64,000 bases of DNA from IMG/VR virus record IMGVR_UViG_2061766007_000665; one strand, 5' to 3'. A program made the translations under genes and the position numbers. Under the pieces are notes generated by a model that searched no databases, had not been told where the DNA came from, and saw nothing but the letters and a program-made list of their open reading frames with translations. The stretch's first letter is position 1. Each line of letters begins with the position of its first letter. Origin of the DNA: an uncultured virus (IMG/VR IMGVR_UViG_2061766007_000665) (lineage: Duplodnaviria > Heunggongvirae > Uroviricota > Caudoviricetes). Positions 8,216-64,000 of the stretch are shown here, piece by piece.

Positions 8216-8264
8216 NNNNNNNNNNNNNNNNNNNNNNNNNNNNNNNNNNNNNNNNNNNNNNNNN

Positions 8265-8552: not shown

Positions 8553-8565
8553 TGGAGGGAGAATA

Positions 8566-9027: not shown

Positions 9028-9028
9028 A

Positions 9029-10046: not shown

Positions 10047-10060
10047 AAGGGGGGTAAAAA

Positions 10061-10390: not shown

Positions 10391-10400
10391 GTGTTAAAAA

Positions 10401-11144: not shown

Positions 11145-11146
11145 AA

Positions 11147-11859: not shown

Positions 11860-11869
11860 AGGTGAATAA

Positions 11870-12310
11870 ATGGATAATAATAGTTTTATATACGTAGATA
11901 TTCCCCTCGTCATTGGCGATCTTACATACGAATATGGATTAGCCTCAAAATCTGCAGGACAAATTTTATTTGAAATTGGTGCGTTAAAAGACAGTGAAAA
12001 TTATGAAAGTTATGAAGATATGAGGGACAATTATCCTGGGGAATTTATATTTATAGATCCTTTTAAAGCGACTAAAATTCCAATTGCTAGGGTGCATGCA
12101 ACGAGCTCCATTGATAGCAGTCTTAAATATACGCAATATCTTTTAATTAGTAATTTAACAAGTAATGCTCCGTATATTGAAATTGAACATGAGAATGAAT
12201 TTTATTGTTATTGTGCATCTGAAAAACTTGTCCCAGTTCCAAATACTTATCCTGGCATAGGAATTACAAATGATAAACATGTTTTTTATAACGAAGGCAT
12301 AGTTCACTGA
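11870..12310 (+). CDS. Acidic hypothetical protein of the array
   Basis: GAGGTG SD; 146-aa ORF. Confidence 0.65.
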   Translation: MDNNSFIYVDIPLVIGDLTYEYGLASKSAGQILFEIGALKDSENYESYEDMRDNYPGEFIFIDPFKATKIPIARVHATSSIDSSLKYTQYLLISNLTSNAPYIEIEHENEFYCYCASEKLVPVPNTYPGIGITNDKHVFYNEGIVH

Positions 12311-12327
12311 TAAGGGGGATATAAATC

Positions 12328-13344: not shown

Positions 13345-13357
13345 GTGAGGTATAGAT

Positions 13358-41811: not shown

Positions 41812-41828
41812 TGTTAAAAGGAGTATGT

Positions 41829-42461
41829 ATGGGAACTACTACAAAAAAGGCTGATTTAGGTTTAGAAGAGCTTATTGCTGCTATGAATGTAACCGAGGTA
41901 CCCGAAGCTAATCTTCAGCTTGCGGATCCCTCTCTTGTTTCATATTACAAAAGCTATTCTAACCGTATTATTTATCTCGATAGAGATATTGATGATACTC
42001 TATTTGGAGAAATCAGAAAAATTATTCAGTGGAATTTAGAAGACGAACAGAATAAAATTGATGTAGATAAACGNNNNNNNNNNNNNNNNNNNNNNNNNNN
42101 NNNNNNNNNNNNNNNNNNNNNNNNNNNNNNNNNNNNNNNNNNNNNNNNNNNNNNNNNNNNNNNNNNNNGCGTTATTTTCATTAATGGAAATAAAGGTCAC
42201 AGATATTGTATGCCAACATCTAAAGCTCTAGTACATGAAGGATCCGGTGGCACGAGCGGCACTTTTGGTGAAACCCAAGCTCAAATGGCTGATTATAAAA
42301 AAATGGTAGATAATATGAAAAACAATATTATTGGGCACACTAATATTGATCAAAAGACTCTTACTAAATGGAAAAACAAAGACATCTACCTTTATCCGGA
42401 AGACCAGCTTAAGTATGGTATCTGTGATGAAATTCTAGACGATATAACTAAAATGTTTTAA
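41829..42461 (+). CDS. ClpP-like (S14) serine peptidase
   Basis: NRIIYLDRDID; RYCMPTSKALVHEGSGG (His); KDIYL.PE..LKYGICDEI (Asp); the catalytic Ser region falls in the gap. Confidence 0.82.
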   Translation: MGTTTKKADLGLEELIAAMNVTEVPEANLQLADPSLVSYYKSYSNRIIYLDRDIDDTLFGEIRKIIQWNLEDEQNKIDVDKXXXXXXXXXXXXXXXXXXXXXXXXXXXXXXXXXVIFINGNKGHRYCMPTSKALVHEGSGGTSGTFGETQAQMADYKKMVDNMKNNIIGHTNIDQKTLTKWKNKDIYLYPEDQLKYGICDEILDDITKMF

Positions 42462-42472
42462 AGGTGTGAAAG

Positions 42473-43825
42473 ATGGAAATTAAGACAATTTCTTCTTCTC
42501 CAACTTTTATTAGTCCAGAAAGTCAGGTTCAATTCTTACAGGGTCAGCTTGAAATTTGGAATAAGATAAGAGATGGAGAAAAAACGTGGGATGATCTAAA
42601 CCAGTTTAGAGCTTTGTTTGGATACCCAGAGGTCAATACTGACTCTTTACGTAGAAGCTTTCAGTCTCTTGGAGTGTATTATGACGCGGGCTGGATCAAG
42701 CCTGTTGATCCTATTGAAAAAACACCAGTTTTTACAAATGAGCATGAAAGCATTAGCGTAGATTTTAGTAAGCAAGAGACTACAAGCGAAAAGATCGTTG
42801 ATCTTAATGAACAAGATATTAGAGATCCCAATAAGCTTTTAGTCGCTCATGGATTTGATCCAAAGAATTGGATTATTGTGCGTGCGAACAATTCTCGTAC
42901 TCACAAATATAGCGCGTCTGTAGATATCAGTTGTTATTCTAGTAGAATAACTGTTAGGCCTAAGAACGCAAACGAGATTAATTACGACGATATTGACCGC
43001 TTCTTTGAGAAATTTAGCCCTACAAACACCATGCGCGTTAATCCAAAGCAATATGATCCAGATGGAGAATTTCTTGAAGTTTGCATACAGGATCTTCATA
43101 TGGGCGAACTTGCATATGCGCAGGAAGCTGGAGAAGATTATGATACAGAGATCGCCAAAAAACGTCTTGAAAACTGTGTCGCTGATATTTTTGAACGCGC
43201 TAAGGGGCGTAAATTTAAAAGGGTTGTCCTTGCATTATTAGGAGACATTTTACATGTCGATAATCTTGAAGGGACTACTACCAAGGGTANNNNNNNNNNN
43301 NNNNNAACAAAAATTTTTGATGAAACCCTTGATGCACTGATTAAGACAATCGACCTTCTTGGAACTATAGCTCCGGTCACCGTTGTCAACATCCCTGGTA
43401 ATCATGACAAATTTAGCTCTTACATGCTTTGCAAGAGCATGGAAATGGCTTTCCGTGGAGATGAAAACGTTGTGTTTTTAAATGACCCGAATCCCAGAAA
43501 ATGGATTCGTTACGGCAACGTTCTTATTGGATATGCTCATGGCGATATGAAACCCAATGCGGTTACAGAGTGGTTGTCCAACGAATGCCCGGAATGGAGT
43601 TTAGCTAAATACAGAGAAGTACACCTTGGCCATCTTCACAGCTTGCAGACAATGCAAAAAATAGAAGATAATAAATATGGATTAATCGCAAGATATTTAC
43701 CTGCACTTTGCTCATCCTCTGCTTGGGAACACAGTATGGGATTTCCAAACTCTCAGAGAGGAATGATGTCGTTTGTTTGGCATGAAGATAAAGGCTTGCG
43801 TGAAATTTGGTACAGCAATATTTAA
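42473..43825 (+). CDS. Calcineurin-like metallophosphoesterase with N-terminal extension
   Basis: DLHMG, LGDILH, PGNHD, AHGD, GHLH. Confidence 0.9.
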   Translation: MEIKTISSSPTFISPESQVQFLQGQLEIWNKIRDGEKTWDDLNQFRALFGYPEVNTDSLRRSFQSLGVYYDAGWIKPVDPIEKTPVFTNEHESISVDFSKQETTSEKIVDLNEQDIRDPNKLLVAHGFDPKNWIIVRANNSRTHKYSASVDISCYSSRITVRPKNANEINYDDIDRFFEKFSPTNTMRVNPKQYDPDGEFLEVCIQDLHMGELAYAQEAGEDYDTEIAKKRLENCVADIFERAKGRKFKRVVLALLGDILHVDNLEGTTTKGXXXXXXTKIFDETLDALIKTIDLLGTIAPVTVVNIPGNHDKFSSYMLCKSMEMAFRGDENVVFLNDPNPRKWIRYGNVLIGYAHGDMKPNAVTEWLSNECPEWSLAKYREVHLGHLHSLQTMQKIEDNKYGLIARYLPALCSSSAWEHSMGFPNSQRGMMSFVWHEDKGLREIWYSNI

Positions 43826-43829
43826 AGAT

Positions 43830-43865
43830 AAAACGGTGATGTAATGGGCATCGCCGTTTTTTATT
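43830..43865 (+). terminator. Rho-independent terminator
   Basis: AAAACGGTGATG-loop-CATCGCCGTTTT-TT. Confidence 0.7.
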
Positions 43866-43883
43866 GGAGGTAAAAAGAGAAAT

Positions 43884-44776
43884 ATGGCATTTATACCTAG
43901 ATTTGTAACTCCATTAGACGGCAACCCTTATTACAACACCATAGCTAACGGTGGANNNNNNNNNNNNNNNNNNNNNNNNNNNNTTTGGAAATCTACTTTA
44001 GATACCTTGCCAAATTGCGTTGGATATGCCAGTGGAAGATATAACGAAATAGGCAGATATGGTACTTTTAAATATGCCATTCCCGGAAACGCTGAAGATA
44101 TGTATGCATATGCGCAGCAAATGGGTTTGCCTGTTGGACAGACACCAAAGCTTGGCGCCATTATTTGTTGGTCTAAAGGTAAAACATGGAACGCCAGTGA
44201 CGGTGAAGGCCACGTGGCAGTTGTAGAAAGAGTAGTGTCCTCTACAGAAATTATAGTTAGCGAAAGTGGGTGGAACTCTTCTCGTTTATTCTGGACAGCA
44301 ACTCACAAAAAGGGAGACGGGAATTGGACTGCTGGCACTGATGCTAATTGGATGAGCGGCAGATATACGTTTTNNNNNNNNNNNNNNNNNNNNNNNNNNN
44401 AGAAAAGGCTACTGACGTTGATGGATCGTGGGGACAAGGAACAACTTTAGCGCTACAAAGACTTTTTGGCACAACGGAAGATGGAATTGTTTCAGGACAA
44501 AGAAGCGCCAACAAGAAGTATTTGCCGGCAGTTTCAACCACCTCTTGGAAATTCTCCACTAATGGATCGACATATGGGTCATCTGTGGTGCGCAAATTGC
44601 AAGAGCTAATTGGCGTTACAGTAGATGGATCATTTGGACCGGCTACGGCAGAGGGGCTCCAGGNNNNNNNNNNNNNNNNNNNNNNNNATACTGGCGCTAT
44701 TGATAGATCCGTAGGAAAACAAACTGTTAAAGCTTTACAGCAATATATCAATTATCGTTTTGATAATATGAAGTAA
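43884..44776 (+). CDS. Endolysin: CHAP domain plus peptidoglycan-binding repeats; joined across gaps
   Basis: LPNCVGYASGR (Cys), GHVAVVE (His), VSESGW; three DGxxGxxT..LQ PG-binding repeats. Confidence 0.9.
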
Positions 44777-44949
44777 TGGAGTAAAACTAGACTTAAATGG
44801 AAAAACAAAATCAGAATGGTAAAAAGCCGTTCAAGGATTTTAGCAACGAATACGATTCGTTTGAAAAACAAAAAAAGANNNNNNNNNNNNNNGAAAAACG
44901 TCATAAAAACAAACACGACAAATTTGACGATTGGAATTAATAGACAGGG

Positions 44950-44995
44950 AGGAAGAGACTAGAGCATGTACGCTCTGGTCTCTTCCTTTCTTATC
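44950..44995 (+). terminator. 16-bp hairpin, probable terminator
   Basis: AGGAAGAGACTAGAGC-ATGTAC-GCTCTGGTCTCTTCCT-TTCTT. Confidence 0.6.
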
Positions 44996-45010
44996 TAAGG
45001 GTATTAAAGG

Positions 45011-45481
45011 ATGAATAAAGGTAAAAAATTTGAGAAACAGATTAAGGCAAGTTGTGATAAGCAAGGTATATTCCTTATACGCTTTAATGACACGTCTTTA
45101 TCATGGGAGCATGAAGAGAGCTCCCGTTTTACTCCAGAGAGCCCATGTGATTATTTGATATATTCAAAACCATATCTTTTTGCGATTGAATGTAAATCTA
45201 CTTGTTATGGGAGTATGTCAATACAAAGGCTTGGAGAGACCGGAANNNNNNNNNNNNNNNNNNNNNNNNNNNNNNNNNNNNNNNNNNNNNNNNNNNNNNN
45301 NNNNNNNNNNNNNNNNNNNNNNNNNNNNNNNNNNNNNNNNNNCGTATCTGACTTTTTATGCTTTTCTCCGAAAAAGAGTTTTAATAAGTATGATGTAGAA
45401 AAGAATGGTGGCATTTTAATAAATCAGAAATTACTTCGTATAAACTATTTATACGANNNNNNNNNNNNNNNNNNNNCATAA
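45011..45481 (+). CDS. RecU-like Holliday junction resolvase (PD-(D/E)XK)
   Basis: GKKFEKQI, PCDY, AIECKST. Confidence 0.8.
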   Translation: MNKGKKFEKQIKASCDKQGIFLIRFNDTSLSWEHEESSRFTPESPCDYLIYSKPYLFAIECKSTCYGSMSIQRLGETGXXXXXXXXXXXXXXXXXXXXXXXXXXXXXXXXXVSDFLCFSPKKSFNKYDVEKNGGILINQKLLRINYLYXXXXXXXX

Positions 45482-45511
45482 TAAAAGAAGATATTAAGAG
45501 AAAGGGGGCTA

Positions 45512-46470
45512 ATGATGGCGCAAGTATATAACAAGATATACGATCCAGAGAAGTATAAAAAGGTAAATAAAGAATCTAAGAATATGATTGATGATTATAT
45601 ATTAGAGCTTAGAAGTCAAAAGAAGTCAGAAGGAACTCAGAAGCAGTACGCCAATGATTTGCGCATCTTCGCCATTTATTGCCTTGAAAAATGCGAGAAC
45701 AAGTCTTTCTTGGAATTAACAAAGAGAGATATTAGGAACTTTGTTCTTTATTGCACTGATGAATGGAAGATGTCCAATGCTAGAGTTAATAGAATTATGT
45801 CTAGTGTTAGGACTANNNNNNNNNNNNNNNNNNNNNNNNNNNNNNNNNATGAAGACTATGATAGAAATGTTGCGGCCAAAATTAAAGGTCTGCCAAAAGA
45901 GTCTGTGCGCGAGGTCGTGTTTATTCAAGATGATGTAATTCTGAAACTTTGGGATAAACTAATGAAAGAAAAGCGCTATAAAGAAGCCACCTTGCTTGGT
46001 ATCTTATATGATAGTGGAGCTCGTAGAAATGAAATCATGCAAGTTAGACGTGATGCTATTACCCAAGACGGCAATTCTACTAATATAGTTAAGGGGAAGC
46101 GTAGTAAGATGTTTCGGGTTCTTTATTTTAGATTGACCAAAGAAGCTNNNNNNNNNNNNNNNNNNNNNNNNNNNNTACTGGCGCTCCAGCTACTGCCGGC
46201 ACCATTTATGAGATGGTTACCAAGTGGAAAAAAGATCTTAATGAGCTAACTGGTGAAGAATATAATTTAAATGTTCATAGTTTTCGTCATTGCTTTATTG
46301 AGAATATGACAAACGGTACACACTATCTTTGTAGAGAAATGAATCTTGGTAAAGTGGCAATAGAAAAGGTCAAGGTGCTCGCTCATCACAGCGATGTTTC
46401 TACTACAGACAGCTATAGATCGAATGATGAGGAAAAAGACATCGAAGAGCTGTTCGGCATTAAGCTGTAA
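45512..46470 (+). CDS. Tyrosine recombinase (XerC/D-like, with N-terminal SAM-like domain); joined across gaps
   Basis: DSGARRNE (R), KGKRSK (K), HSFRH, AHHSDVSTTDSY (H, Y). Confidence 0.9.
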
Positions 46471-47190: not shown

Positions 47191-47827
47191 ATGGCGTTAT
47201 TAACTAAAGGGGCGGGAGAACGCATAGTAAAAGATCAACAAAAGAAGCTTAATAAATTACAAGAAGAACAGAAGAAAAAAGCAGCAAAACTGCTTGAAAT
47301 AAAAAATAATAGTATTAAGGGCGCATATAAGAAAATCGTCTTGGATGCTTTTATTAAAGAATTCTNNNNNNNNNNNNNNNNNNNNNNNNNNNNNNNNNNN
47401 NAGTCTGGTTAATTCTATAGTTTTTAAATATGAAGAAAAAGATGGCCAGATTATTCCGTCTTTTACTATTGACGAAAACCATGTTATTTTTAAGAGCGAT
47501 GCTTCTGAACGTAATGTGGCTTTTAACGAAAATAGCAGTGAAGATTTTATATCTAATGAAAACATTATTACTGGTGACAATATAGATCGATATTTATTTA
47601 ATAATAATGAAGAATATGATGCATATGAAAATGGAGATATATTATATTCTGATTTAGACGAGCTAGACGGCAATTTTGTTCCTATAATTAAAGACGGAGA
47701 TAGATATGGCATTTTTAATCAAATTAATAAACGACTTGGGTATAAACCAAGGAGCTCGTCTTTTAACGACGCTAAGAAAAGTGCTATTAGTATTTGGAAC
47801 AAAGCAAAATATAAATATGGGCTTTAG
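47191..47827 (+). CDS. Hypothetical protein immediately upstream of the TMP fusion
   Basis: AGGAGG SD; joined across gap 47366-47401. Confidence 0.6.
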
Positions 47828-47837
47828 GAGGTAAAAC

Positions 47838-50800
47838 ATGGCCGGGAATAAATTTATATTAAAAGACAATGAGCCCATGACTGTGCGCGTAACAGATGGG
47901 ACGACCATACAAGATATAGAGAAAATTATACCAGCTGACAACCTGAAATATTTTAGTGGCACAGAACTAAGAGAACGCGCTGCTAGTTTGGCTGGAGACA
48001 AAGATTTTGGACATGAGTTTACAGCAAGCTTGCGTGATGAGATCGATTCTTTCCTTAGATCTGCTGCTGACCAGGGTTGGGCTGTGAGGACAGAAGTAAA
48101 AACAGATCCAAACGGTAACACCTCTATAATTTTACACACTATTGGGCAACCAATATACAATAAAGATCCAAATTCAATTCTCGGAGAAAACGCTTTACAT
48201 ATTACCATTGATATGGCAGATAATGCCGGTTTTGTTAATAGGGGCAATACCAGTTCTATATCCCCTTTATTTAGAACATTTGATGATCATAAAATTGGTG
48301 AAGTTGCCACAGAAGCGGCTCATGCTATGTTTGCATCAGCAACGAAACATATGCGTGAATATGGGAAAAAGGGATCAAAATCTAATAGGGAAAAAACAAA
48401 CGATTTAAAAAGATTAAAAGATAGTATTTCTCAGGATTTTGTTCTTGATTATCGTGGAGATAAAATTACAGGTGAGGCAAGCTGGGATTCTGCACAAGGC
48501 ACGACAATGAAATATAGTGAAGCAGAAATCGCCAGAAGAAAAACATATGCTAGAATTGGCCCCACTGTAAAACGTATGCTTGCTCAAGATTTAAAGCAAT
48601 ATACTGCATTAGCAGAAAGATACCCCAATCTAAATACATATGATTTACCAGAAGAAGTCGTGGCTGCATATATGCAGGTTGCCGCGATGGTGATGTATTC
48701 TAATAATCTTGAAGAATACTTAAAAAAGAATTATGAAGGTAAAGAGACTGATTTAGCATATGATATTGCAACCAGGCCAGAATTTAAACAATGGAGAAAA
48801 TGGCTTGAAGATGCTAAAGAACTTGGGGCAAATATGTTCTTTGCTTCAGATTCTTCTGCTGTTACTAAAGGTGGCGGTTATCATATGGCCCCAGACTTGG
48901 ATTCTCCATTACAGCGCATTGTTGGAGACTTAACCGCTGAAGGTATCGCAAAAACCAAGACCTTGGCAATCAATCAAAAAGATAAAAGCATAGAAGAATT
49001 AAAGAAAACAGGACTGTGGTTTGACAATCCCTCTGGCGAATCATTGCTAACTCGTGGTGTTTATGTTGATGAGCAGCTTGGCGATTTGTTCTTAAGAAAA
49101 GTAGCAGAAAAGACTGGAGGCAAATCTGCCACCGCAACAAAAATGACAGAAGAGCTTATGGTCATGACCGGATCACTTGCCGATACAATGGCTCATAAGG
49201 GCTTACAAATCTCAACCCGTCATATTGATACAGATAAGACCCCAATTAGCAAAGACTTTTTAAACGCAATAGAAGACAGTGAAAAAATATTATCCGAATT
49301 AGCGAATGGCGCCTCTAGACAATTTGGTGAAGGCTCTATAGTTGGATCGCGTGGTTTAAAGTTTGCTAAAAACATAAATATACCTCCTGGGGCGATTTTA
49401 ACCGAAATCGGCAAAGACGCAAATGGAGATGTATATGTAAAATATATTCCCCATGAAACAGTAACAGATGCTACAAAACTAATTGGCGAAAATGAGAATA
49501 TAAGATCAGAAGCCAAAGTCATCAAAGATGATGTATATCATACAGCCTTGGTGGAAGCCGCAACAGAACTTGGCAGAAATCAAGATGAAATTAATCAATT
49601 AGCAGGAGCGAATTTAATTAGATTAGCGCCTCCGTTAAAAAGAATAGAAGATACTCGTACAAACGCAGCATATGTTATACCGCAATTAAACAACGCTTTG
49701 GTAAGACTTGGCGTCGATTCCAAAGAGAAGTTTGAAGAAATCACTAAAAACATTCCTATTTTACGTAACTTCTTTGATTTTAAAGATGGCAAACTAAGCA
49801 ATATTACTAGTTGGAGTAATGATCTTAGCACATGGGTTACGCCAGATGGGAAAAGCGCCTTTACACCAACCGACTTTGATAAGCAACACGGAAGAACCAC
49901 TGAAGCAGACATTAAGTTTTATTTTGATAATATTTTAACAGAAGAAAATTCGTTATTTAATGATCTATTAAAACTGGTCAATGAAAACGATAGAAATTTA
50001 GTTAAAAACGAATTTGCCACTGCATTAACTCCGTTTGCCTTATATTCGTTCCAAGAATCTGGTGGAGTTTTAGGAGAAGATGGAGCTGCTATACTAGATA
50101 AGGGCGAAAGTGCTGTACAAGCTAGTAGAAGGCTTAGGAATTTTCTAAATAAAAACTGGGGTCGCTTTGCTCCTGAGCTTGAACAAAAATATGGCAAAGC
50201 TAATGTAAAAATTGCTAAAGCCGAGCTAGACAAAAGGCTCTCTGGACGAGATGAAGACATAGAGGCGTATAATGCCGTTAATAAAGCCGCATTAGAAGCA
50301 AAAAGTAAAAACGCATATTCTGGTACAGATGGGAAAAAACAATTAAAAATTGTTTTTAGAGACCCTATTAGCGATGATGAAATTGATGGCAGAAGTTTGA
50401 CATATGTTCTTCCAGAAGACGGAAAAGGCAATACTATATCAAAGCTTAATCAAGAGCAATATAGCAAGTATTTTGTTGGTCAAATACAGGCAATCGCTAA
50501 AAACAAGGGGCTAACAATTGGTAAAGACACAGAGGTGGTTTTAACAACAGATGGCTTGCCACGCGATAAGCTTAAGCAAAGCGGTCTTTATTCAAGTTCT
50601 GTTCTTACTCCTTTGTTTTCTTTGCCGAATTTGGGAGAAAAAGATAAATATTCTGTAGGATCTCAAGACAAAGCTACCGGATCTTTTTTAGCAAGTGTTC
50701 TTAATGTTGTTAATGGAGGAACCGAATCCAATTTACAGCGTAATTATCAAAACGAACTTGCAAAATTAGTTGCTCCGTCTGGAAGCCTTTATAAAAATGC

Positions 50801-53800
50801 ATTCGGCTCTAAGCTTGGTGCTAGTGGAAACTTTAAGGTTATGGGAGCTCAAGGCCTTGATTCGGTTGGTGTATTGTCTTATGAAGGCGCATTAGAAACG
50901 TTGTCATCTGGTAATGGCGCAACCATTAATGATAGGCTTGCACATGCCGAGGCTATGTTGGCTGNNNNNNNNNNNNNNNNNNNNNNNNNNNNTGCGATTA
51001 AAACAAGATTTGAAGACATAAGAAATAGTAAAACAAGAATAGGCTTACGCAAGGCTGATGACGAAATTACAAAATTTTATGTTGAATCTTTGGCTGGCAC
51101 AAACCAAACCATATCTGCATTTCTTACTAGAAATCCATTATTAAGTGGGGCTAATTTAAATTTAGCTGGTTTACAAGTAAATGCTAAAGGTGCCGATCAA
51201 GGCAAAAATGTTATTCTGTTGAATGCCGCATTAGCTGAATTATTAAATGCTGATTTTGATGGCGATATGCTTCAATTTGGAGCATTTTTATCTGCTAATC
51301 CAGTAATTATAGAAATACTTTCTGCATATGCTGGCTTAAATTTTAAAGATCTTAAGGCTTTTGCAGACAGCATGTCCAATGTATCTGAAGCCTCAAAATC
51401 TGTAGAAAGCGTTCAAAGCTCTGTTGAAAACTTAAAAAGAAGTTCTGCGGCTANNNNNNNNNNNNNNNNNNNNNNNNNNNNNNNNNNNNNNNNNNNNAAA
51501 ACGGTCAAGAATATTTGGGTATGGCGTCTTACGCAAGAGAAGAAATGGCTAAACGTCAGAAATATTATTTGCGTAAGAATGGTACAGATACAGACAAAGC
51601 TCTTTCTTCGCTTTATGAAGTTTGGACTGGACAGGTGCTTGAACAAAAAGGTATTAGCCAAAAGCAAACTGGCAAAATGGCTGAACGTGGAGAATCGTAT
51701 ACTCCAGCTACGCTCAGTGGAGTTATGGATGCTCTTATTAATTCGCCATCTATGGAATCATGGAACAGATATAAGGCTTCCTTAGATGTTAATGATGATA
51801 GCAAAATACAGGCCGCCATTCAAGCATTAGCTCCAGAAGTTTTAGCAGAATTAATAAAACTTGGATATATAGACGAAAGTGGTAAAAATATTACAGATGT
51901 TGGTGAAGCTGCAATGCTTGACCTTGCTGCAAGAAGTAATGAAAAAGCATTAACCGCTAAAGGGTATGAATCTTCGACTTATGTAAAATGGAAAAACAAG
52001 GTTGTACAAGAAGACTATGGAGTTGAAGCAGAAAGAAGCACATTAAAGCATAGTTATAACGCTCCTGCGCAGTCTTCTGGTCTTTCCGTTTCCAGTTCTC
52101 CTACGGTTTATTCGCCAAGTGGCAATTTACCTGGTAGTAGCAATCAATCTGGAGGAGGAAACCCACCTGGCCCAAATTATAATTTTAATGATTTATATGC
52201 AACTATTACTGGTAAAGCAGAAATTATCTTAAACGGAGAAACTTCTATATTGGGGTCTGGATTCAGTCAAAATCAGCAAGCCGTTAAACANNNNNNNNNN
52301 NNNNNNNNNNNNNNNNNNNNNNNNNNNNNNNNNNNNNNNNNNNNNNNNNNNNNNNNNNNNNNNNNNNNNNNNNTATTCAATTAATGGCAAGGTTGTAGAA
52401 AATGCCATGTCTACTACTGGGGCTTTTTCATCTCTTCATGATAAGCCAGCTCCATGGGATACTAAGGCGCTTGAAAGCGCAGCATTTGGTACTCTTGGTC
52501 ATTCTTTAATGGAAGCCATAATAAAAGCCATCGCTGAAANNNNNNNNNNNNNNNNNNNNNNNNNNNNNNNNNNNNNNNNNNNNNNNNNNNNNNNNNNNNN
52601 NNNNNNNNNNNNGATTTCCAGAGTTTTACTTGCGGCAGTTGCAGAGAATATAGGTAAAAAAGGAACCGTTTTATTACCAGAACATACTGGTGCTATGCAA
52701 GTTGGAGATAAACTTTTAACAAACCAAAGTGACTTAATTACTTTTAATCGAAACGATTCCGGTGAATTTGATATCACCGCTTATGACTGGAAAATTAGTA
52801 ATCGTGGAGGACAAAATGACCCACAGACTCAAGCAGAACGATTAGAGCAGTTGTCTATGGCTATAGCCCACTTTAGAGTAGAGTNNNNNNNNNNNNNNNN
52901 NNNNNNNNNNNNNNNNGATGAAAATGGTAAAAAATATTTAGCTGGCTTAGGGCTTAATACGGACAATGTAGATGATATAGAAAAGCTTATATCAGCAACA
53001 GAAAGAGCGCAAGTAGTAAATGTAAGAGCCTTTAAAGATGGAAAAACCGGTGGCTATGTTGCAGAAACATCAGAGGGTAGGGCAATAGATTTCATGAATG
53101 CCATAATGTTAATGGCTTCTGNNNNNNNNNNAACACAATGGCTTGATGCTGCTAATATGAAATATAACTACTTTAATAAAGAAGGAGCAACTAATGAGCC
53201 ATTAAGTGTACGAAACGAAAGGCTTAAACGTGAATGGGAAAAAGAGCATCCAGGTATGTCCTACCATTCTGGAAAAGATGATGGGCTTGTTAGTGGTATT
53301 AGTAAGAGAATTAATCAAAGATTGACTATGTTAATTGACTATAGATTGATTGATATGGCCTTTTCGAAGATTAGACAATCAATGCAAAAACTTGTTCAAA
53401 CAACAAAAGAATTAGACAAAGCGTTGGTTGACATACAAATTGCTACTGGTAATAACTATTCTCAAACTCAGGCTTTAATGAAAGAGTATTCTAATTTAGC
53501 TCTTCAAATAGGTAGAACCACAAAAGAGGTCGCATCAGCTGCCAATGACTGGTTACGTGCTGGTTATGAAGGGAAAGAAGCCACCGAGCTTGTTACAGCC
53601 TCAATGTATTTAAGCACGCTCGGTATGATGAGCGCAGAAAATGCTACAAAAGCGCTGATTTCTGTTTTAAAGGGCTGGAAATTATCTAGTAATGAAGTAT
53701 TATCTGTTGTTGATAAGCTTGTTACTGTTGATATGCAGGCTGCGGTTTCTGCTGGTGATATTGCTNNNNNNNNNNNNNNNNNNNNNNNNNNNNNNNTCTG

Positions 53801-56800
53801 CACAGGCTGCCGGAGTTCAGATGGACACTCTTATCGGTATCTTGACAACTGGACAAGAAACATCTCAGCAAGCTCCAGAGCTTGTTGGTAATGCATGGAG
53901 GACCATTTTTGCTCGTGTACAAAATGTTAAAGCTGGTAAATATTCTGCATCTTATGATGAAATGCAGTCGTCTGATTATAATGAAGAAGATTGGACTGCG
54001 CTTAATGATGTCGAGACGGTTTTAAAGACTGTGAATATTCAGCTTCGTGATACATCTACATCATACAGAAGCACAGAAGCGGTTCTTAATGAAATTGCAT
54101 CTAAGTGGGATACTTTTGATCAAGTTACAAGATCTGCGATAGCAAATGCAATGGCTGGCACTCGTCAACGTGAGCAGTTCATGGTTGCCATGAACAATTG
54201 GGACAGTGTTTTAAGATATGCGGAAGTCGCTGCAAATTCTTATGGAAACGCCACTGAAAAAATGGAGGCTTATACCGATTCTATTGAAGCTGCAAAGAAT
54301 AGAATTACTGCAGCTTTCGATCAATTAGCTCTAGATTTAAATTTAAAGAATCTTCTTGTTGGTATATATGATGCAATTACTGGAATAGTTGAGAACATTG
54401 GTGTATTGTTAATCCCAGCATTATTGTTACTTATAAAAACCGTTACTAATGTTAATTCCGGAGAATTAAGATACGGTAGTGTTTTAACTACGGTTACACA
54501 AAAGCTTGCTAATTTCGGTTATAAGCTTGAAAATAGTTCCAATCGAGTAGAAGTCGGAAAAGGCGGATATACTTTAACTGATGATGATAAAAAAGCACGT
54601 AGTGTTGGAGCATATACAATTGCGGGTACAGCCGGAGCCTCTATGCTTGGTGGGGCAATTGGATATGGCATTGGTGGCTCTACTGGTAGCGGTATTGGCA
54701 CTATTATTGGTGGAACTGCTGGAGGAGTGTTGTTACCGGCATTGGCTGAGTCGGCTGCGCTCCCTTATGTTAGTGTTGCACTTGCTGTTATGGGTTTAAT
54801 TAGTAGTGTAGCTGTTTCTGAAAGCAAAAAGAAACTAGAAGAAGCGAAAGATGCCTTTAAAGAGCAAGAACAAAAATATTCCGAAGCTTTAACAGCTAGC
54901 TCTCAAATTGATTCATATTTAGAATTGTCCAGTGNNNNNNNNNNNNNNNNNNNNNNNNNNNNNNNNNCTCACAGATGAAGAATATAATAAATTTATTCAG
55001 AGTTCTAATGCTTTAGCTAATATATTCCCAGAGCTTGTTGTTAATACAGATGACGCTGGAAACAGTTTTGTCAACCTTGGTGACGATGCAGAAGCTGCTA
55101 GACAAAAGGTTGAAGATTTAACAAAACAAANNNNNNNNNNNNNNNNNNNNNNNNNNNNNNNNNNNNNNNNNNNNNNNNNNNNNNNNNNNNNNNNNAAGAA
55201 AAACAAAAAGGAGCGTCTAAAGAGCTAAATGAAAGGGGATATGAATTTGTAACCGGCACAGATGCTGATAGTTATAATGTTACATATTATAGGCAACAAA
55301 AAGATGACTTTGATAAAATAAGGGGCGAAATTGATAGACAATATATAGACGAATATCTTGCATATGCTAGACAAGTTATTGGATATGATCAATATTTAAA
55401 CATGTCTACCACTAGTAAGACGATTCTCAAAAACGCTTTGTCTAAAGGTGCTTCAATGTCTCAGGGCACAGCCAAAGAAGNNNNNNNNNNNNNNNNNNNN
55501 NNNNCTATTGTAGAGTTACAAAATAATGGTATTGATGATCTATATAATTTAAATATTGATAATTCGATGCTTATTGGAGAATGGTCAAATAATAGAAAAA
55601 AGTTACGCGATGTTTTAAGTGGCGCTCTTAATGGGATTAACGATCAATATGCTTCTGCTATTGCCGAATCTTATGGCTTTGCTANNNNNNNNNNNNNNGA
55701 TATTTTTAACCTTTTGGTTTCCGAACTTGGAAGTAATGCTAATAAATTATCTGGGCGCTCTGTTGGAGATATTAGGAAATTGTATCGTTGGGCACAATCT
55801 GGCGATATTAATAGTTCAACTTCTTATGATACCATTATTAGTTTATTAGATGCAGAAAGCGATTTAACTGGTACTTTAGATAATAAAAAGAACGTTTTAA
55901 AAGAGCGTACGGATAATGCTAATAATTTGGCTGAAAGAATAAATGAGGTTTTAGGTTCTGATGTTGCTTCTATCAATGTTACTGAAGAATTTTCTAATTA
56001 TAACGAAAAAACCAGAACAGCGATTAAAAATTTAATTGACATGGTTGTATCTGCTGGTGGCATAGATAATATTAGTGCAGAAGATATCGAAAGTGAAATA
56101 GCCTACATCACCACAATTGCAAAAAATTCGTTGGCAAAAGATTTTGAGAACGTTCATATGACGTTACTAGGAGAGGTTTTTAACACTCAATCATTAGGAA
56201 TAGAAGGACTAATTGATAGTTTCTCTGAACTTAATAAGGTCATGGATCAAGTAGCTAATACATATAATACATTAGCAAAAGCAAGTGAGGAGTATTCTCT
56301 TAATGGAAGCTTGACATTAAAAACAGTGCTCGATATGATTGATTCTAATGAGAATTTCTTAGATGTGCTTACTATTACCGAAAACGGTATAGGCTTAGTA
56401 TCTGATGCTACAGCTACAATGGCAGAAAAGCAAATGATAGAAACAATGGTACAAATAGAAAATACCAAGGCCACCCTTAAGGATACTATCGAAACTAATA
56501 AAAATAGTAGATCTACCATTGCTAATGCAAAAGCCGAAACCGATTTAGAAATAGCGACAAAAAATGGAATATTAGCTACATATAATAATATTAAAGCGCT
56601 GCAAATAAGAATTAAAACTAACGAGCTTTTAAACAAGACTATTATAGATACTATAGCCAACACCATGAGGCAGACATATGCTGAGCAAGGCATTATGGAT
56701 TTTGATTATATTGATAGTCAAATTGAAAAAGTTTATGCTAGTAACTTAGTAACTGCAGACGGACGTAATATAGATGACGAAATTACCAAAATTACCAACG

Positions 56801-59592
56801 AATTAAGTTTGTTGACATCCACAGTCGATAATTATCAAACTCAATTAAATGAATTAGATCAGCAAATTGCAAAAGATGAACATCGTTTAGATATATGGAA
56901 TGGGATTTATACAAAATTAAAAAACATGGATCCAAACGATTTTGCTAAGTCTTTACGGGGAGAAGGATATACTGTTGAAGATCTTACCACAGAACTTGAA
57001 CGTCTTGAAACTTTATTAAATCATATTAATAAGGAATATAGGGCGTATTTGGTTAATGGCACAGATAGCTTTACCGATTATTATTCTTTAACTGCAGAAG
57101 TTTTACAACGGCTGCAAGGTGAATATTTAGCGTTAAGAAATGGATATGCGGAAAATTCTAAAGAATGGCTCGAGTATGATTCTAAATATCAAGATGCTTT
57201 AATGAAAGCAAAGAATCTCGATGATGAATTGGTTCAAGATCAAATATCGACTCTTAATAATCTTAAAGCCACTGTTTCTTTAAGAAAAGATGAGTATGCT
57301 ACATTAATTAAAACTGCAGACACAGACGCTGAGCGCATAGAATATTTAAAGCAGTATAATGATGCTCTTGAAGAGCAAATTAATTTAATGAAGTCTGCTT
57401 ACCAATTCCAAAAGGATATGATGGATTTCCGGATGGAGTATATTTCTGGTGATACGAATTCAGGCAATTATAAATCACTTATTGGTTTAATGCGTACAAA
57501 TTTGGAAACGCAAATTACTGTTGCCAAAGAAGCATATGATACAATCAACAAGAGATTTGATGAAGAATTTGTAGAAGGACTATGGAATAGAACAGACGAA
57601 AACGGTAATCGCTTATTCTCAACTAGAGAGGATGCTTTAAGATGGGCTCAATCTGCTGAGGGTCAAATGCAGCTTAATGCAGAGAAACTTGGAGATTCTG
57701 GTTATCAGCAAGCTCTGAAGGATTGGTTGGAAGCTTATAAGGCAGTTGGCGATTTAATCGTTCAAGATTTTGAATATCAAATTGCTCAAATTCAAAGACA
57801 GATAGATGAACTTGATGTTACAAAACCGTCGTCTTGGGGATCAAGAGAAGATATTAATAAATATTATGATTCTTTAATTGGCAAAGTTAGAGACCTTGAT
57901 GTAGCTATATCTAATGCTGGACGTACCGGATATTTGCAAATTGAAAAATTAGANNNNNNNNNNNNNCTCAGCTTCATAAGATTAAAGCTTTATTAGAAGA
58001 ATCAGATAAATTAACAGATGAACAAATTGAAGATTATGTAGCAAAATATAACGATATGCTTAAGAAAATCTATGATNNNNNNNNNNNNNNNNNNNNNNNN
58101 NNNNNNNNNNNNNNNTAATGCTGTTACATATTATGTTAATAGTTACATTAGTCAATTAGAAAAGCAAAAAGAAATTATAAGCAACAATTATGATACAGAG
58201 CTTAAAAAATTACAGGACAAACAAAAGTCAATTGAAAGAACCAACAAGCTTATTGAACTTCAAAACAATCTATTAAATGCACAACAAGAAAAACAGCGTG
58301 TTTATCGAACCGGTATTGGTTGGACATATGAATCTAATCGTACTAAAGTTAAAGAGGCTCAAACAGCCCTTGATGATTTTTATAAACAGGATTCTATAGA
58401 CGATTTACAAAACGCCAAGGATCGTGAGTTAGAGCTGTTAGACGCTCGTATTGAAGACTGGAACAATTATTTAAAGATGCTCCAAGTCAAATATGAAGAA
58501 TATGAACGCCTTAATAACTTAAAGCTTGCTCAAGAGATACTAGGAGTTGAAACAGAAGAAGAATTAATGGACGTTCTTCTTAATGACGCTCTAGCATTCC
58601 ATGAAATGTATGAGATGAGCCAAGAAGCGTTTTTAGATAATCAGATAAATGCATATGATAGATACACTAGTGTTTTAGATGAATTTCTTGGTGACTATGA
58701 AGAAAATGTAATTGCCTTAGAAGGGCTAAAGGAGCGTTGGATTCAAGCATTAGATATATCCGATTATATTTCTAAGAACGATAACAACCCTCAGTCTGCT
58801 GCAGCGCTTGACGTAGCAACAACCCCAATTGGGACTTATGAACCAACCACTATTGATAAAAATGATTGGGCGAATGTTGATTTCTCTATATTAATGGAGC
58901 GTGCAAAAGCAAGTCCAGATGGTAGATTACATGACCCAAGTTCGCCATATGATGGTTATTCATATCAACAGCTTGCTTCAATGAGAAATCAAAAAATTGA
59001 ATACTTTGGCATGGAAACCGATAGTCCTGGATCGTCTACATATGGAAGAGATTCTTCTGGCTATATTGTTGATACTGATACGTTGATTGATCTTCAAACA
59101 ACTGGTAAGGGTAGAGTCGATACCGATACTGGTGTAATTATTACCCAGCCGTCTGAACCAACCGTTGTAATTGACAATGTTGAAATTACCGGAACAGATG
59201 CGATTGCCGCAGAAAAGGCGTATCTTGAGTGGTTAAAAGCAAATGGAACATATGGCGAAGCAGAATGGGCAAAAGCTCAATTAGAAGAATTGATTCAGGG
59301 GGGATATGCTGGAGGAATAGTTAATGGTCCTGTTAATTATACTGGTCTTGCCATGCTTCATGGATCCAGTTCTTCTCCCGAATATGTTTTAAATAGTGAC
59401 CAAGCTTATAACCTACTAAGGTATCTTTCTACAACTCGCCCAGATTATACAACTACTGGCGGAGTTGATACTGGCACTCAGTATATTGTTCAAGGAGATG
59501 TCGTTCTCGAAGGGGTTAATGACCCTCAGAGATTCTGGGATGAAGTTACTAATGCAATGAGCTCTCGTTGGTCAGTTACTAAAAATCGTTAA
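47838..59592 (+). CDS. Giant tape measure protein (about 3,900 aa) with N-terminal single-chain two-barrel RNA polymerase and PD-(D/E)XK nuclease domains
   Basis: AGGAGG SD; each readable segment has a stop-free frame up to and out of each N-gap; NADFDGD at 51246-51266; nuclease motifs 52374-52870; TP901-type TMP core about 53340-54330; TM/Gly-zipper 54400-54810; C-terminal TGLAMLHG...PEYVLN. Confidence 0.8.
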
Positions 59593-59695
59593 ACTTAATT
59601 AACACAGAGGAGGAAGGCAGCGGCGGTGAGTATTTTNNNNNNNNNNNNNNNNNNNNNNNNNNNNNNNNNNNNNNNNNNNNNNNNNNNNNNNNNNN

Positions 59696-62600
59696 AATCA
59701 CAAGCCATCTCTTACAGAGATTGACACAACTGAAAATAACACTTTCTCATGTATGGTAAATACGTCTGGGGAACCTGTTATGGCATATAAAATGTCGATT
59801 TTAAGTGAAGATGGATCGGATCTTGTGGCGGNNNNNNNNNNNNNNNNNNNNNNNNNNNNNNNNNNNNNNNNNNNNNNNNTTAATAAAAGTCAAATTAACA
59901 TAAAAAATATTACTAACAGCGTGTCCCCATATACTAATTTGATTAATGGCAAGAATTATCAGTGGGGAATTCGTTTATACAATGCAAAAAAGGGGAGCAC
60001 TAGCCAACCGAACACGAAAGTATGTGATGGCTATTTAGTGGGTTCTACTAAATATGTGATTTGGATGAAACTTGCCAATCAGACTACAACCAATAAAGAT
60101 GTAGCCGATCAAATTGTGCAAGATCGGTATATTGAATTTAACATAGTAGACAAAGACAAATTATTAGTTGGAGCACACGAACCTCAAGATAAGGTTGTTC
60201 CAGATGTCGTTAGTTCCAATCATCCGTTTATTCAAAGAAAAAAGATAGATTGGGTTACTAAAGAACTTGGTGAAAGTAAAAACTATATTAAACTTGAGAC
60301 ACACGAAAATTTTGATTATGATTTCGTTAGTGGCACAAGTTTTAATATTTATCTTTGTTCTTCTGATCATACGGTCACTAGTGCTTTTGCTGATCCAAAC
60401 ACTAACATTAATGTTGCTGACAAGATAATGATTTACGCAAATGCTNNNNNNNNNNNNNCCGGCCTCTGATCAGGCTACAGTTACTGCGAAAGAAACAAGT
60501 CGCTCTATTGTTGGATATTCTTCTGATACAGGTGAAATCAGAGTACATGATGCATGGAACGAAGCGCCAGTAAATGGAAATGTTTATCGTATATTTGAAC
60601 AAGACGTATCTACCAAACTATATAGAGAAATTTTTTCTTCTGATTTAAAANNNNNNNNNNTATTCTGCTACTGCACAGTCTGGAATTAGTTATTATAGCA
60701 CTATGGATTCTAGTCAGGCGGCTGGTACATTACCAACCCCATATCCATGTTATATAGTAGATAGTACATGGAGCAGAGTGTTTAAGGCTGGTACGCCATA
60801 TTATGTATTAAATTCTGCATTAGATGTCGCTTCCTTCACAACGCTACAAGCTCATGGAGTTACTGCATATGACGGAAAATGTGGTATTGTTGAAATAGAC
60901 CCAAATAATACAAGTGATGCGGACCGCGCTCATGGCGGCACATGGAACTGTTTGTTTTCAGATGTAAATGAGCTGTCAACCATGTACAACTCTCAGAAAA
61001 TCGGCGGTAACCCTATTGCTGATACCAGCAATAATTTTAAGACTATAAACAATAACTGGGTTATAGAGGGTACTTTTAGAGACCATACTGGTTCATATGC
61101 TACAGTATATAACAATGAATTTTATATTGGCGGAGTTACATCCAATATTGGTTCAAAGGAGCCTTGTGTAATATATAAAGAGAGCAACAATTATTATAGA
61201 TATCAGCCAAGCATCACCAATGGGACTTATATCGGAGGTTTTACTTTAATTACAGATATAACCGACCTTGGTAATAGATTCTTTATTCAACCAAATGTTA
61301 ATATTAAAAGCGATACCTATAATCCGAACGAAATTGTGTTTGCTAACGGCAGCAGAGTTGATATTATTGAGCAATATTATTATACCATTAATGGTAGAAT
61401 AGTAGATGATGCCACGGACGATACACCCGGCGCAAAAAAAGTAGATTGCACTTTTAACAAGCTTGATAATTCGCAGTGGCTATTAGAAAAGAGTGCGCTT
61501 GATAGAAGCTCTAATGTTTTAACTTCTATTGGTGTGCCGCAAACAGCTCCGCAATCAGATTATGTTATATACACAGATTTTGCCGATAGCGCCCCATACA
61601 ACGTGTTTTATGCGCGTAAAGAGCCGTATCATGTAATTCAATACAGAAATGCTGGCGACGATATTGTTGATGGATATGTTGATCCAGATACTCCTGGATA
61701 TCCTAGCGTTGATCCAGGGGTAATTCCTAATATTAGAGAAGTTTCTGTGTTTAAAGATATATACATGAATCCGATTGAAGATGATCTAAAATCCACAATT
61801 TATATTTATCATGATCTAAACACTGATTATTATTATAGATATAAAAATCGTCATTTTGAATATATTGATGGTGGGGTTTGGGAAGACATTTTAGCTGAGG
61901 GTCAATACTTTGGAGCCCCTCATGCATGGCGTATGGCCGAATTTAGAACAAAGTGGTGGTTTGAAGATGATTTGCCGACTCAGATTAAAAGCTATCAATA
62001 TAGCTTANNNNNNNNNNACTCCAGAATTGATTAAGCAAAGCGAAGTATATTATAACACAGGAACCCTGTGGTCTTTTAGTGGCTTAGACGGTATTAAAAG
62101 TGACTATTATAGCCATGATGACCCCCATAGATACACTATCGCTGTTAAGATTTTAGATGAGTATGATAAAGAGTATAATTGGCAAAACAACTTTTCTATT
62201 TTCTATGACACTGATAGTTCTCATGTATCAATGAAAGTTGTTCCAGACTGTAATACACAATCTGTTTATATCGAAGTCAATTCTCCGGTTTATGCGCAGA
62301 CTTCTGATTTTGAAGAAGAAGAGTGGGGATCACTAGAAACAGTAGAAGGCGATGATTTGGTTTCTATTAGAAAGGCAACTGATCCAAATTTTGCTAATGC
62401 AGAGAACGGTGTAGTAATTGACAGTGGGAAAACCTTAAATTACGATGGACTTGTAGAAGATCCAACGCCCTTAAGATTCCCTAGCGATTTTTCATTCTAT
62501 ACAGAGTTTCAACTCACTAAANNNNNNNNNNNNNNNNNNNNNNNNNNNNNNNNNNNNNNNNNNNNNNNNNNAAATTACTGCCGACACACCTGATGAAGAC

Positions 62601-63957
62601 CTGGATCCGTCAATTCCATTATTTGAAATCCAACATAATACAGGGAATGTAATTTATAGTGTTGACGCCGGTGTAACTTATTATAAAAAGACTATACCTG
62701 CTAATACCCCATATTATACANNNNNNNNNNNNNNNNNNNNNNNNNNNNNNNNNNNNNGCTATTTTGTTACTACGGAATATAGCTATATTGAACTAGAGGT
62801 TGGTTCACAAACCAACACATACTATATTGCTACGCAGGTTGCTGGTACCACATCGGCGCCTATAACAAACGATATTACTGTTATAGACAATAAATATTCT
62901 GAAATTGTTATTGGCGGNNNNNNNNNNNNNNNNNNNNNNNNNNNNNNNNNNNNNNNNNNNNNNNNNNNNNNNNNNNNNNNNNNNNNNNNNNNNNNNNNNN
63001 NNNNNNNNNNNNNNNNNNNNNNNNNNNNNNNNNNNNNNNNNNNNNNNNNNNNNNNNNNNNNNNNNNNNNNNNNNNNNNNNNNNNNNNNNNNNNNNNNNNN
63101 NNNNNNNNNNNNNNNNNNNNNNNNNNNNNNNNNNNNNNNNNNNNNNNNNNNNNNNNNNNNNNNNNNNNNNNNNNNNNNNNNNNNNNNNNNNNNNNNNNNN
63201 NNNNNNNNNNNNNNNNNNNNNNNNNNNNNNNNNNNNNNNNNNNNNNNNNNNNNNNNNNNNNNNNNNNNNNNNNNNNNNNNNNNNNNNNNNNNNNNNNNNN
63301 NNNNNNNNNNNNNNNNNNNNNNNNNNNNNNNNNNNNNNNNNNNNNNNNNNNNNNNNNNNNNNNNNNNNNNNNNNNNNNNNNNNNNNNNNNNNNNNNNNNN
63401 NNNNNNNNNNCATTGCATAAAGAAAACGGTCCCGCTCTTACGTGTTTTACAATAGCTGGTCTCGATAGTAACTGGGTTAACATTTTAGAGCCTAGCGCTC
63501 TTACACCAACATATCATANNNNNNNNNNNNNNNNNNNNNNNNNNNNNNNNNNNNNNNNNNNNNNNNNNNNNNNNNNNNNNNNNNNNNNNNNNNNNNATTG
63601 CCAAATGATTCTAACGGGTATAAACACGGTATATATGAAAAGATACAAGGAGAAAACGGTCCCTATCTTAAAATGGTTACTAATAGACAATATATGTTCC
63701 TCGAGTCTACTGATAATATCCCAGGTGACACATATAATACTCTATTAGTTCCTCAAAACAGTCGTTTAGATTCTGGATTAACTGGAGACATAGGCTTTAA
63801 TGATAGTGGCAATGTATGGATTGAGAACAATGAAAATTCTGCTTGGGAAGATATTATAGATTCCAATAAATTCTGCTTCTATATGTATGTACGAGACAAT
63901 AATGGCACTCAGCAGGTTCATGCAGAAGTTGCTTTACAATTAAAAGGAAGGGGGTAA
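59696..63957 (+). CDS. Large tail-tip/baseplate-region protein (start in gap 59637-59695; may be more than one gene because of the 493-nt gap)
   Basis: Follows the TMP; P...ID....NTFSC.VN start; LINGKNYQWGIRLY and IKSYQYSL FnIII-like motifs; open frames around all small gaps. Confidence 0.65.
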
Positions 63958-63960
63958 AAC

Positions 63961-64000
63961 ATGGAAAGCTATGTACGTTTTAATCAAAATTTAGTAGTGA
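63961..64000 (+). CDS. 5' end of the next tail gene (truncated by the window)
   Basis: GGGGG SD and ATG at 63961, open to the window end. Confidence 0.5.
   Translation, partial: MESYVRFNQNLVV

Follow-up and report, generated by a model that had tools for sequence, protein, structure and literature searches.

The two-barrel RNA polymerases (RNAPs) are defined by a barrel that carries the metal-binding DxDxD triad (PMC7824862, PMC10770324), and their families are described as sharing little sequence beyond this region (PMC10770324). Two phage enzymes of this kind are relevant here. In the account of Chaban et al. (2024; PMC10770324), the tape measure protein gp96 of Thermus phage P23-45 has an N-terminal virion RNAP carrying DFDGD; gp96 was found via DFDGD alone, and the fused polymerase acts as a virion enzyme. 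The tail of this phage is given as 800 nm and its tape measure protein as 5,002 amino acids (aa). YonO of SPbeta, a single-chain two-barrel RNAP, is encoded by a gene of its own (839 aa) and is responsible for late transcription (Forrest et al. 2017, PMC5467207). The present work concerns a 64,000-nucleotide (nt) stretch of DNA from an uncultured virus (IMG/VR record IMGVR_UViG_2061766007_000665; Caudoviricetes), hereafter the window, and within it a giant gene at 47838-59592 whose product joins a tape measure protein to a front half with an RNAP-like module and a probable nuclease domain.

A first-pass annotation of the window, made from the letters alone, had proposed a polyprotein of ~3,900 aa at this locus and had compared it with gp96 and YonO, both of which are as it described them. 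Our favoured reading, held with moderate confidence, is that this is the single tape measure gene of an uncultured Firmicutes siphophage with cargo at its front: a homologous region of aa 1-750, a diverged single-chain two-barrel RNAP module, a linker and a nuclease domain.

A single gene interrupted by runs of N

The region 47838-59592 is a single gene of ~3,917 codons, of which 3,810 are readable and ~107 are hidden by runs of N (N-runs). It starts with ATG 47838 and stops with TAA 59590-59592. The window has 77 N-runs, 13 of them within this gene, where the readable DNA forms eight open pieces, p1 to p8:

47838..59592, plus strand: whole giant gene, eight pieces whose frames differ only across N-runs
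47826..47831, plus strand: Shine-Dalgarno sequence AGGAGG, read directly, 6 nt before ATG 47838 and overlapping the stop of the upstream open reading frame (ORF)
47838-51452, plus strand: piece p1, open frame
51500-52288, plus strand: piece p2, open frame
52374-53765, plus strand: piece p3, open frame
53797-54933, plus strand: piece p4, open frame
54968-55129, plus strand: piece p5, open frame
55198-57951, plus strand: piece p6, open frame
57969-58076, plus strand: piece p7, open frame
58117-59589, plus strand: piece p8, open frame

As the first-pass annotation had reported, the frame breaks only at N-runs, and no stop codon or intergenic spacer is visible between the pieces in the readable DNA. 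The peptides that it quoted lie within 2 nt of where it placed them (NGQEYLGM at 51500, YSINGKVVENAM at 52374, EKQKGASK at 55198 and QLHKIKAL at 57969). The frame changes at 7 of the 13 N-runs and is kept at 6. These changes are artefacts of the N-runs and are not real. Across the window, 55 N-runs have a clear open frame on either side, the remaining 22 being ambiguous and left out of the scoring; 21 keep the frame and 34 change it. Since about one third are kept, as uninformative lengths give, the length of an N-run carries no frame information anywhere in the window. Ordinary genes are affected as well. The tyrosine recombinase of the window has its SAM-like and catalytic domains in different frames across N-run 46148-46175, and the MBL/RMMBL hydrolase lies in two frames across N-run 41244-41432; both are single ORFs (327 aa and 395 aa, respectively) in the related contig L001. 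Within the giant gene, the Pfam domain PhageMin_Tail is cut by N-run 53766-53796, with profile positions 2-97 and 107-201 in different frames, and is contiguous in the homologous protein P0003. No intron accounts for the frame changes, because the window has no Rfam families or tRNAs.

Intact relatives provide the second line of evidence. With the L001 fragment as query, a full search of 1.84 billion representative proteins gave only 11 matches at E≤0.001, including P0003 (4,053 aa), and cluster look-ups added P0014 (4,109 aa) and P0017 (4,450 aa, from a 151.7-kb contig). All eight pieces align, in order, to each of these three proteins, which bears out the proposed ~3,900-aa protein and its order of domains. 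The alignment to P0017 brackets four junctions directly (p1/p2, p3/p4, p4/p5 and p7/p8), where P0017 has 12, 8, 10 and 17 residues, compared with 47, 31, 34 and 40 hidden or partial nt in the window. The flanks of p6/p7 both have counterparts in P0017, but the window is ~20 residues longer there; the p2/p3 and p5/p6 junctions are backed by overall collinearity only. P0017 also has the same C-terminus as the window, the last ~94 aa being 67% identical. In the L001 phage, the polymerase and nuclease parts are both covered by a single ORF, which is at least 2,624 aa long. A metagenome scan returned a second copy of this phage (L017) and nothing else. Every relative that spans a junction reads through it.

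That two or more genes are present, with a stop and a new start hidden in an N-run and the polymerase encoded separately, is very improbable. The ~107 unreadable codons and the two junctions without bracketing alignments speak for this division and against a single gene, but frame is lost at N-runs throughout the window, ordinary single genes included, and neither the three full-length relatives nor the L001/L017 ORF has a stop along the way. Moreover, seven real boundaries would all have to fall within N-runs, which make up ~4% of the region, a very unlikely coincidence. The single-gene reading is well supported, since the intact relatives are collinear, the junction lengths fit and the L001/L017 ORF reads through; from the window alone, a stop inside an N-run of this particular copy is possible.

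Among these relatives, P0003 and P0014 end just past the conserved ...QGIGW block with unrelated tails, while their cluster mate P0017 continues for a further ~400 aa; a frameshift, intron or assembly break in those two records is possible.

Conserved architecture in divergent relatives

By their motifs and domain matches, divergent relatives keep the three-part order of polymerase-like module, nuclease-like domain and tape measure. P0010 (2,297 aa) contains RYPS...NADYDGD, EQEGISAKK, the nuclease motifs and PhageMin_Tail in the same order, and in P0015 GISAKK is followed by the nuclease and then by the tape measure core. RFPS...NADFDGD...ISAKK is found in P0016, and the nuclease together with the tape measure core in P0004. 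Overall identity is 24-40% across the 10 sequences covering D(F/Y)DGD, and the family alignment has four conserved blocks in fixed order: a basic motif, RNP, NADFDGD and EQxGISAKK.

The region had no match among phage records in a nucleotide search, p1 had none by tblastn, and no longer relatives of p1 were found by a word-indexed search. No loci related to P0010 or P0016 were found in viral contigs. Starting from the family alignments, the NADFDGD pattern picked up mostly beta-prime genes, ordinary or fused, instead of relatives.

The rear half is a tape measure protein

The rear ~2,170 aa are the tape measure protein of this phage. The features of this half are as follows:

53091..59589, plus strand: tape measure module, ~2,166 aa, corresponding to phage PMBT24's whole 1,508-aa tape measure protein
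53379..54159, plus strand: TP901-type core (TIGR01760, Pfam PhageMin_Tail), cut by N-run 53766-53796
54358-54459 and 54727-54825, plus strand: two clusters of hydrophobic, glycine-rich membrane segments (Kyte-Doolittle scan)
54968..58116, plus strand: extended stretch poor in proline and with much E, K, L, N and D (composition)
58117..59589, plus strand: C-terminal part with a conserved ...YRTGIGW... block, residues 11-149 matching the PMBT24 tape measure protein

The TP901-type core and the membrane segments had been read correctly in the first pass. PF10145 matches p3 with 42.7 bits (cut-off 33.2), and TIGR01760 scores 27.6 bits against a cut-off of 28.8 in the N-run-cut p3 and 93.1 bits in P0003. 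PHROG tape measure families match p3 and p4, and none of the 32 window ORFs scanned against the PHROGs gave another tape measure match. The region 54968-58116 is presumably a helical ruler, judged from its composition only; PHROG tape measure family 4211 covers the corresponding region of P0003 and P0017.

The nearest cultured relative is the Enterocloster siphophage PMBT24, which has a 238-nm tail (PMC11035940). Its 1,508-aa tape measure protein aligns from residue 328 of p3 to residue 149 of p8, that is, with the rear ~2,170 residues only, and its major tail protein is 39.5% identical to the product of window 38264-39304. Within the tail module, the giant gene is found where the tape measure gene is expected, as in PMBT24, and the gene for the major tail protein homologue lies upstream of it. 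The label "SPbeta-like" given to the phage in the first pass is therefore a loose one, since SPbeta-type phages match at only 20-28% identity.

The best match to the tape measure core is Phage Phass-1 (L010, OQ749652.1). Under code 15 (TAG=Q), positions 5261-14713 of its genome, annotated as many small ORFs, read as a single tape measure gene of 3,150 aa in which TAG occurs in frame 110 times; its core is close to the N-terminus, and it has no polymerase part.

The front half contains an RNA polymerase-like module

The front ~1,750 aa form an extension that is absent from the PMBT24 tape measure protein. Its polymerase-related features are:

47838..50087, plus strand: N-terminal region, ~aa 1-750, homologous in the family (p1 residues 128-1161 align with P0003 340-1423)
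50088..52036, plus strand: RNA-polymerase-like module, ~aa 750-1400, spanning N-runs 50965-50992 and 51454-51497
50790..50846, plus strand: conserved basic motif YKNAFGSKLGASGNFKV, pattern found in 8 sequences
51129..51266, plus strand: beta-prime-type catalytic barrel (DPBB-A), with RNP at 51129-51137 and NADFDGD at 51246-51266
51641..51667, plus strand: EQKGISQKQ block, second most conserved in the family, present in the window and, of 14 scanned sequences from relatives, in 11

The N-terminal region of ~750 aa has no Pfam or PHROG match. Around the catalytic barrel, every family sequence covering the site has D(F/Y)DGD (10 of 10), and RxP occurs in 9 of 9. The basic motif (YKxAxxxKxxxSGNFKV) lies ~100 aa upstream of the DFDGD barrel, and the conserved EQxGISAKK block ~130 aa downstream of it. 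In the window, the latter block (EQKGISQKQ) may be the bridge-helix region; hhalign aligns it with "GLSEKL" of gp96 at low confidence.

As judged by profile comparison, the DFDGD region is homologous to the RNA polymerase beta-prime barrel. When an 8-sequence family profile was searched against all PDB chains, 83 matches were obtained at E≤10 (best E 0.0045), and the best 60 of these were all RNA polymerase large subunits. With a 6-sequence profile, beta-prime accounted for 27 of 32 matches (best E 0.25). PHROG 2987, "RNA polymerase beta subunit", was the top or only annotated match in five of the nine family proteins scanned, with E-values of 1.5e-6 (P0016), 5.7e-4 (L001), 9.9e-4 (P0007), 0.018 (P0005) and 0.028 (window). 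A tblastn search with the L001 core against 50,697 phage records (E≤10) returned eight records, of which five carry an annotation as jumbo-phage RNAP subunits and one more is the unannotated counterpart of these. In hhalign comparisons, the family profile matched the RNAP subunit gp209 of Vibrio phage pVa-21 with P 4.2e-5 (101 columns, 28% identity), a fused two-barrel protein of Chloroflexota with P 3.2e-4, and the three-member gp96 family with P 0.0015 (17% probability, 70-72 core columns around RNP...DFDGD), whereas 15 decoys (13 window proteins and two reversed templates) gave P 0.11-0.85.

Several results weigh against reading the module as a complete RNAP. The window's own sequence matches an RNAP PHROG only at E 0.028 and has no Pfam match. 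No match to PHROG 2987 was found in P0003, P0017, P0010 or P0006. Three further hhalign templates, with P 2e-5 to 1e-4, are not independent of the motif, because they were fetched via the NADFDGD pattern. The match to gp96 is weak, and kinship with YonO was rejected (P 0.35 by hhalign, and E>1 when the window was searched with YonO by tblastn). Above all, nothing beyond controls was seen of a second, beta-like barrel in five sequence tests: canonical beta by hhalign gave P 0.55; sub-alignments against gp96 and beta barrels gave P 0.31 and 0.21; the PDB profile gave no relevant match; jumbo-phage beta gave P 0.34 and 0.73; and a second candidate location gave P 0.011-0.63, compared with 0.09-0.6 for reversed controls. 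The second barrel and the two-barrel fold of ~aa 750-1400 are inferred. The basic motif YKNAFGSKLGASGNFKV is an unproven candidate for the basic loop of this second barrel, and the comparisons do not support a barrel assignment for it. A barrel that escapes sequence comparison is to be expected, since RNAP families share little sequence beyond the DxDxD region according to PMC10770324. The initial proposal of an RNAP in the first ~1,400 aa therefore stands in part: homology to a beta-prime-type barrel was found, but the core is confined to ~750-1400 and its second barrel is unseen.

Alternatively, the DFDGD module could be a relic or another enzyme, with one RNAP-type barrel and its metal loop but without transcribing activity; variants of this idea include a structural plug, another nucleotidyl transferase, and a device that binds or translocates DNA at the head-proximal end of the tape measure. 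We regard this as unlikely, although it is the most serious competitor. It agrees with the finding that one barrel is supported while five tests for the second failed, and with a similarity that is weak to gp96 and absent to YonO. However, the aspartate triad is strict in 10 of 10 sequences at 24-40% identity, and it is accompanied by RxP and two further conserved blocks, a pattern that favours a conserved catalytic function. Nor is an invisible second barrel unexpected for RNAP families, and gp96 itself was recognised by DFDGD alone, as described in PMC10770324. A diverged single-chain RNAP thus remains our preferred reading of the module.

Other searches gave little. Pfam (E≤10, six family members) found RNA_pol_Rpb1_2 in one of the six, at E 0.054; phmmer of the L001 fragment against the PDB gave no relevant match; and a PDB search with a profile including two full-length proteins was diluted and uninformative. 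In the ESM Atlas, phage clusters with PF05183 (RdRP) were found at 0.88 and 0.86, which serve as leads only.

The Chloroflexota protein used as a template comes from metagenome-assembled genomes L003 and L006 (same genes as L016 and L015), in which a single ORF of 1,048-1,058 aa occurs besides canonical rpoB. This ORF has a beta-type barrel (Pfam RNA_pol_Rpb2_6, 92-95 bits) and NRAPTL...NADFDGD, and is a fused two-barrel RNA-polymerase-like protein. A second D-Y-D-G-D string, at window 37817, lies in an open frame of 258 codons. It has no visible RxP context and is probably due to chance.

Linker and nuclease-like domain

An S/G/P-rich linker, also recognised in the first pass, separates the polymerase-like module from a nuclease-like domain:

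52037..52186, plus strand: S/G/P-rich low-complexity linker (STLKHS...NYNF; composition)
52488..52874, plus strand: probable RecB/Cas4-like PD-(D/E)XK nuclease domain, spanning N-run 52540-52612
52488-52526, plus strand: nuclease motif GTLGH (GTxxH in relatives)
52731-52733, plus strand: nuclease motif D of SDLITF, invariant in the alignment
52785-52793, plus strand: nuclease motif D-W-K (DxK in relatives)
52848-52850, plus strand: nuclease motif Q of ERLEQLS, invariant in the alignment

GTxxH, D, D-x-K and Q are invariant in all six aligned sequences; the last three are what we take to be the PD-(D/E)XK motifs. The homologous fragment P0013 matches Pfam PDDEXK_1 (PF12705) with E 1.4e-4 and 22.3 bits, the cut-off being 22, and also an exonuclease PHROG (E 0.017) and a Cas-associated PHROG (E 0.023). 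These features point to a probable PD-(D/E)XK nuclease. Counting against it, PDDEXK_1 gave no match at E≤1 in the window piece, which has two N-runs inside, and matched only one of six family members; the region had no match among PDB sequences; and hhalign against five PDDEXK_1 domains gave P 0.02-0.69, some of these templates perhaps being taken from the wrong strand. The counterpart in the P0003 lineage gives no BLAST alignment to that of the window, and an H...D...DTK pattern is discernible there by eye. The nuclease assigned in the first pass is thus upheld by the motifs and by the borderline match of P0013, but the window's own sequence is not recognised by Pfam.

Proposed mechanism

Polymerase and nuclease activity are inferred, and packaging into the virion and injection are proposed by analogy with P23-45 only. 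As with gp96, the giant protein would be built into the tail tube and expelled at infection. Its membrane segments might then form or line a DNA channel, the polymerase part would transcribe the first phage genes while the DNA enters, and the nuclease could act on host or entering nucleic acid. Two observations fit with an ejected chain. The 3,746 readable residues counted, with X excluded, include no cysteine, and tail length divided by tape measure length comes to 0.16 nm per residue both in PMBT24 (238 nm/1,508 aa) and in P23-45. The equality of this ratio in the two phages suggests that the polymerase part of gp96 counts as ruler. At 0.158 nm per residue, the PMBT24 value, the tail of the present phage is predicted to be ~620 nm long if the whole chain measures and ~340 nm if the rear half alone does.

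It is also conceivable, though improbable, that the enzymes are cleaved from the tape measure precursor prior to or in the course of tail assembly, with the S/G/P linker as one possible site, and act intracellularly, so that the virion would contain the rear half alone. The flexible linker between polymerase and nuclease would suit such processing, a ClpP-type protease gene is nearby (41811-42461), and PMBT24 manages with a 1,508-aa tape measure lacking any extension. On the other hand, the fused polymerase of P23-45 is described as a virion enzyme (PMC10770324), the shared 0.16 nm per residue suggests that it is part of the ruler, and all relatives spanning the junctions retain the fusion.

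A more far-reaching version of the injection model can be put forward only tentatively. A rare family of gut-Firmicutes siphophages may deliver a minimal single-chain RNAP and a RecB-like nuclease as the head-proximal half of its tape measure, with the whole cysteine-free chain extended in the tail tube as ruler. The tail would then be near 600 nm long, as opposed to ~340 nm with the rear half alone as ruler. Because the enzymes would be part of the extended chain, their folding would have to wait until they are ejected. Such a fusion would have an origin separate from that of the one in Thermus phages. Tail length offers a simple physical test of whether the enzymes travel unfolded in the tail tube.

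Neighbouring genes

A block of enzyme genes (40464-46470) lies between the major tail protein gene (38264-39316) and the tape measure gene, in an order common to L001:

40464-41811: MBL/RMMBL hydrolase (RNase J-like)
41811-42461: ClpP-type protease
42473-43825: exonuclease
43884-44450: CHAP peptidase
45011-45481: Holliday junction resolvase
45512-46470: tyrosine recombinase

Elsewhere in the window, 818-2722 and 14007-15854 encode BspA-type leucine-rich repeats (Pfam LRR_5, E 5.5e-52 and 3.3e-16), possibly in host-binding or surface proteins. Many other genes have their frames broken by N-runs, 34 of the 55 scorable ones being of this kind, and ORF lists of the window therefore under-call gene lengths; the pieces around 14007-16294, 17360-20279, 20809-24661 and 59627-64000 may each belong to longer genes.

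Comparison with known systems

PMBT24 and the TP901-1-type tape measures are the counterparts of the rear half. The PMBT24 protein is collinear with it, and the neighbourhood is the same, the major tail protein gene being followed by a resolvase gene ahead of the tape measure gene; nothing of the ~1,750-aa front half is present in PMBT24. The TP901-1-type proteins (TIGR01760, PF10145), including those of the SPbeta group, have this core domain too, and the Bacillus phage tape measures are 26-31% identical; their core is at or near the start, whereas here it begins at ~residue 1,850.

For the polymerase barrel, the best sequence match is the N-terminal beta-prime subunit of the phiKZ-type jumbo-phage RNAP (PHROG 2987; pVa-21 gp209; PDB 7ogp, PHIKZ055), with LRNPxL...NADFDGDxxQV in common. 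The match is limited to this one barrel, and the jumbo-phage proteins are separate small subunits of a multisubunit enzyme without a tail fusion. YonO, too, is a single-chain protein from a siphophage of Firmicutes, and its barrel shows RxP...DxDGD (RSPH...FDNDGD). In contrast to the module described here, it is the product of a separate gene that transcribes late genes and is not fused to a tape measure.

In overall design, the gp96 group (P23-45, P74-26, G20c and TSP4) is the closest. Both groups are siphophages with one giant tape measure chain and an N-terminal polymerase, and in both there are relatives without the fusion. In gp96 the DFDGD loop is likewise preceded by F-x-RNP, at a spacing of 38 residues from RNP compared with 41 here. 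The differences are considerable. The two lack BLAST-level similarity, a tblastn search with the gp96 polymerase retrieving 10 Thermus phage records only from the phage collection searched, and their host groups differ. DFDGD is located at ~residue 1,139 here and at 779 in gp96. A nuclease-like domain follows the polymerase here, while the word "nuclease" does not occur in the main text of PMC10770324; conversely, gp96 has a metallopeptidase domain, and no Pfam peptidase match was found in the giant protein. By analogy, the giant protein may work like gp96; for common descent of the two fusions there is only the weak hhalign match.

In the literature searched, including supplements, a polymerase on a tape measure is described by Chaban et al. 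only, for Thermus phages, and no description of a nuclease on a tape measure was found in a search that was not exhaustive. What appears to be new is a gp96-like design that occurs in another host group, shows no BLAST-level kinship and includes an additional nuclease-like domain. If correct, it would give such giant genes, labelled "tape measure" or "hypothetical" in phages presumed to depend on the host polymerase, a different meaning in annotation, and would provide a small cysteine-free polymerase to study. It would also constitute a second, unrelated-looking lineage, in mesophilic Firmicutes phages and with a nuclease, making the tail ruler a general vehicle for injected enzymes. Should the two fusions have independent origins, enzymes on the ruler would be a recurrent solution, shared by these phages and those of Thermus.

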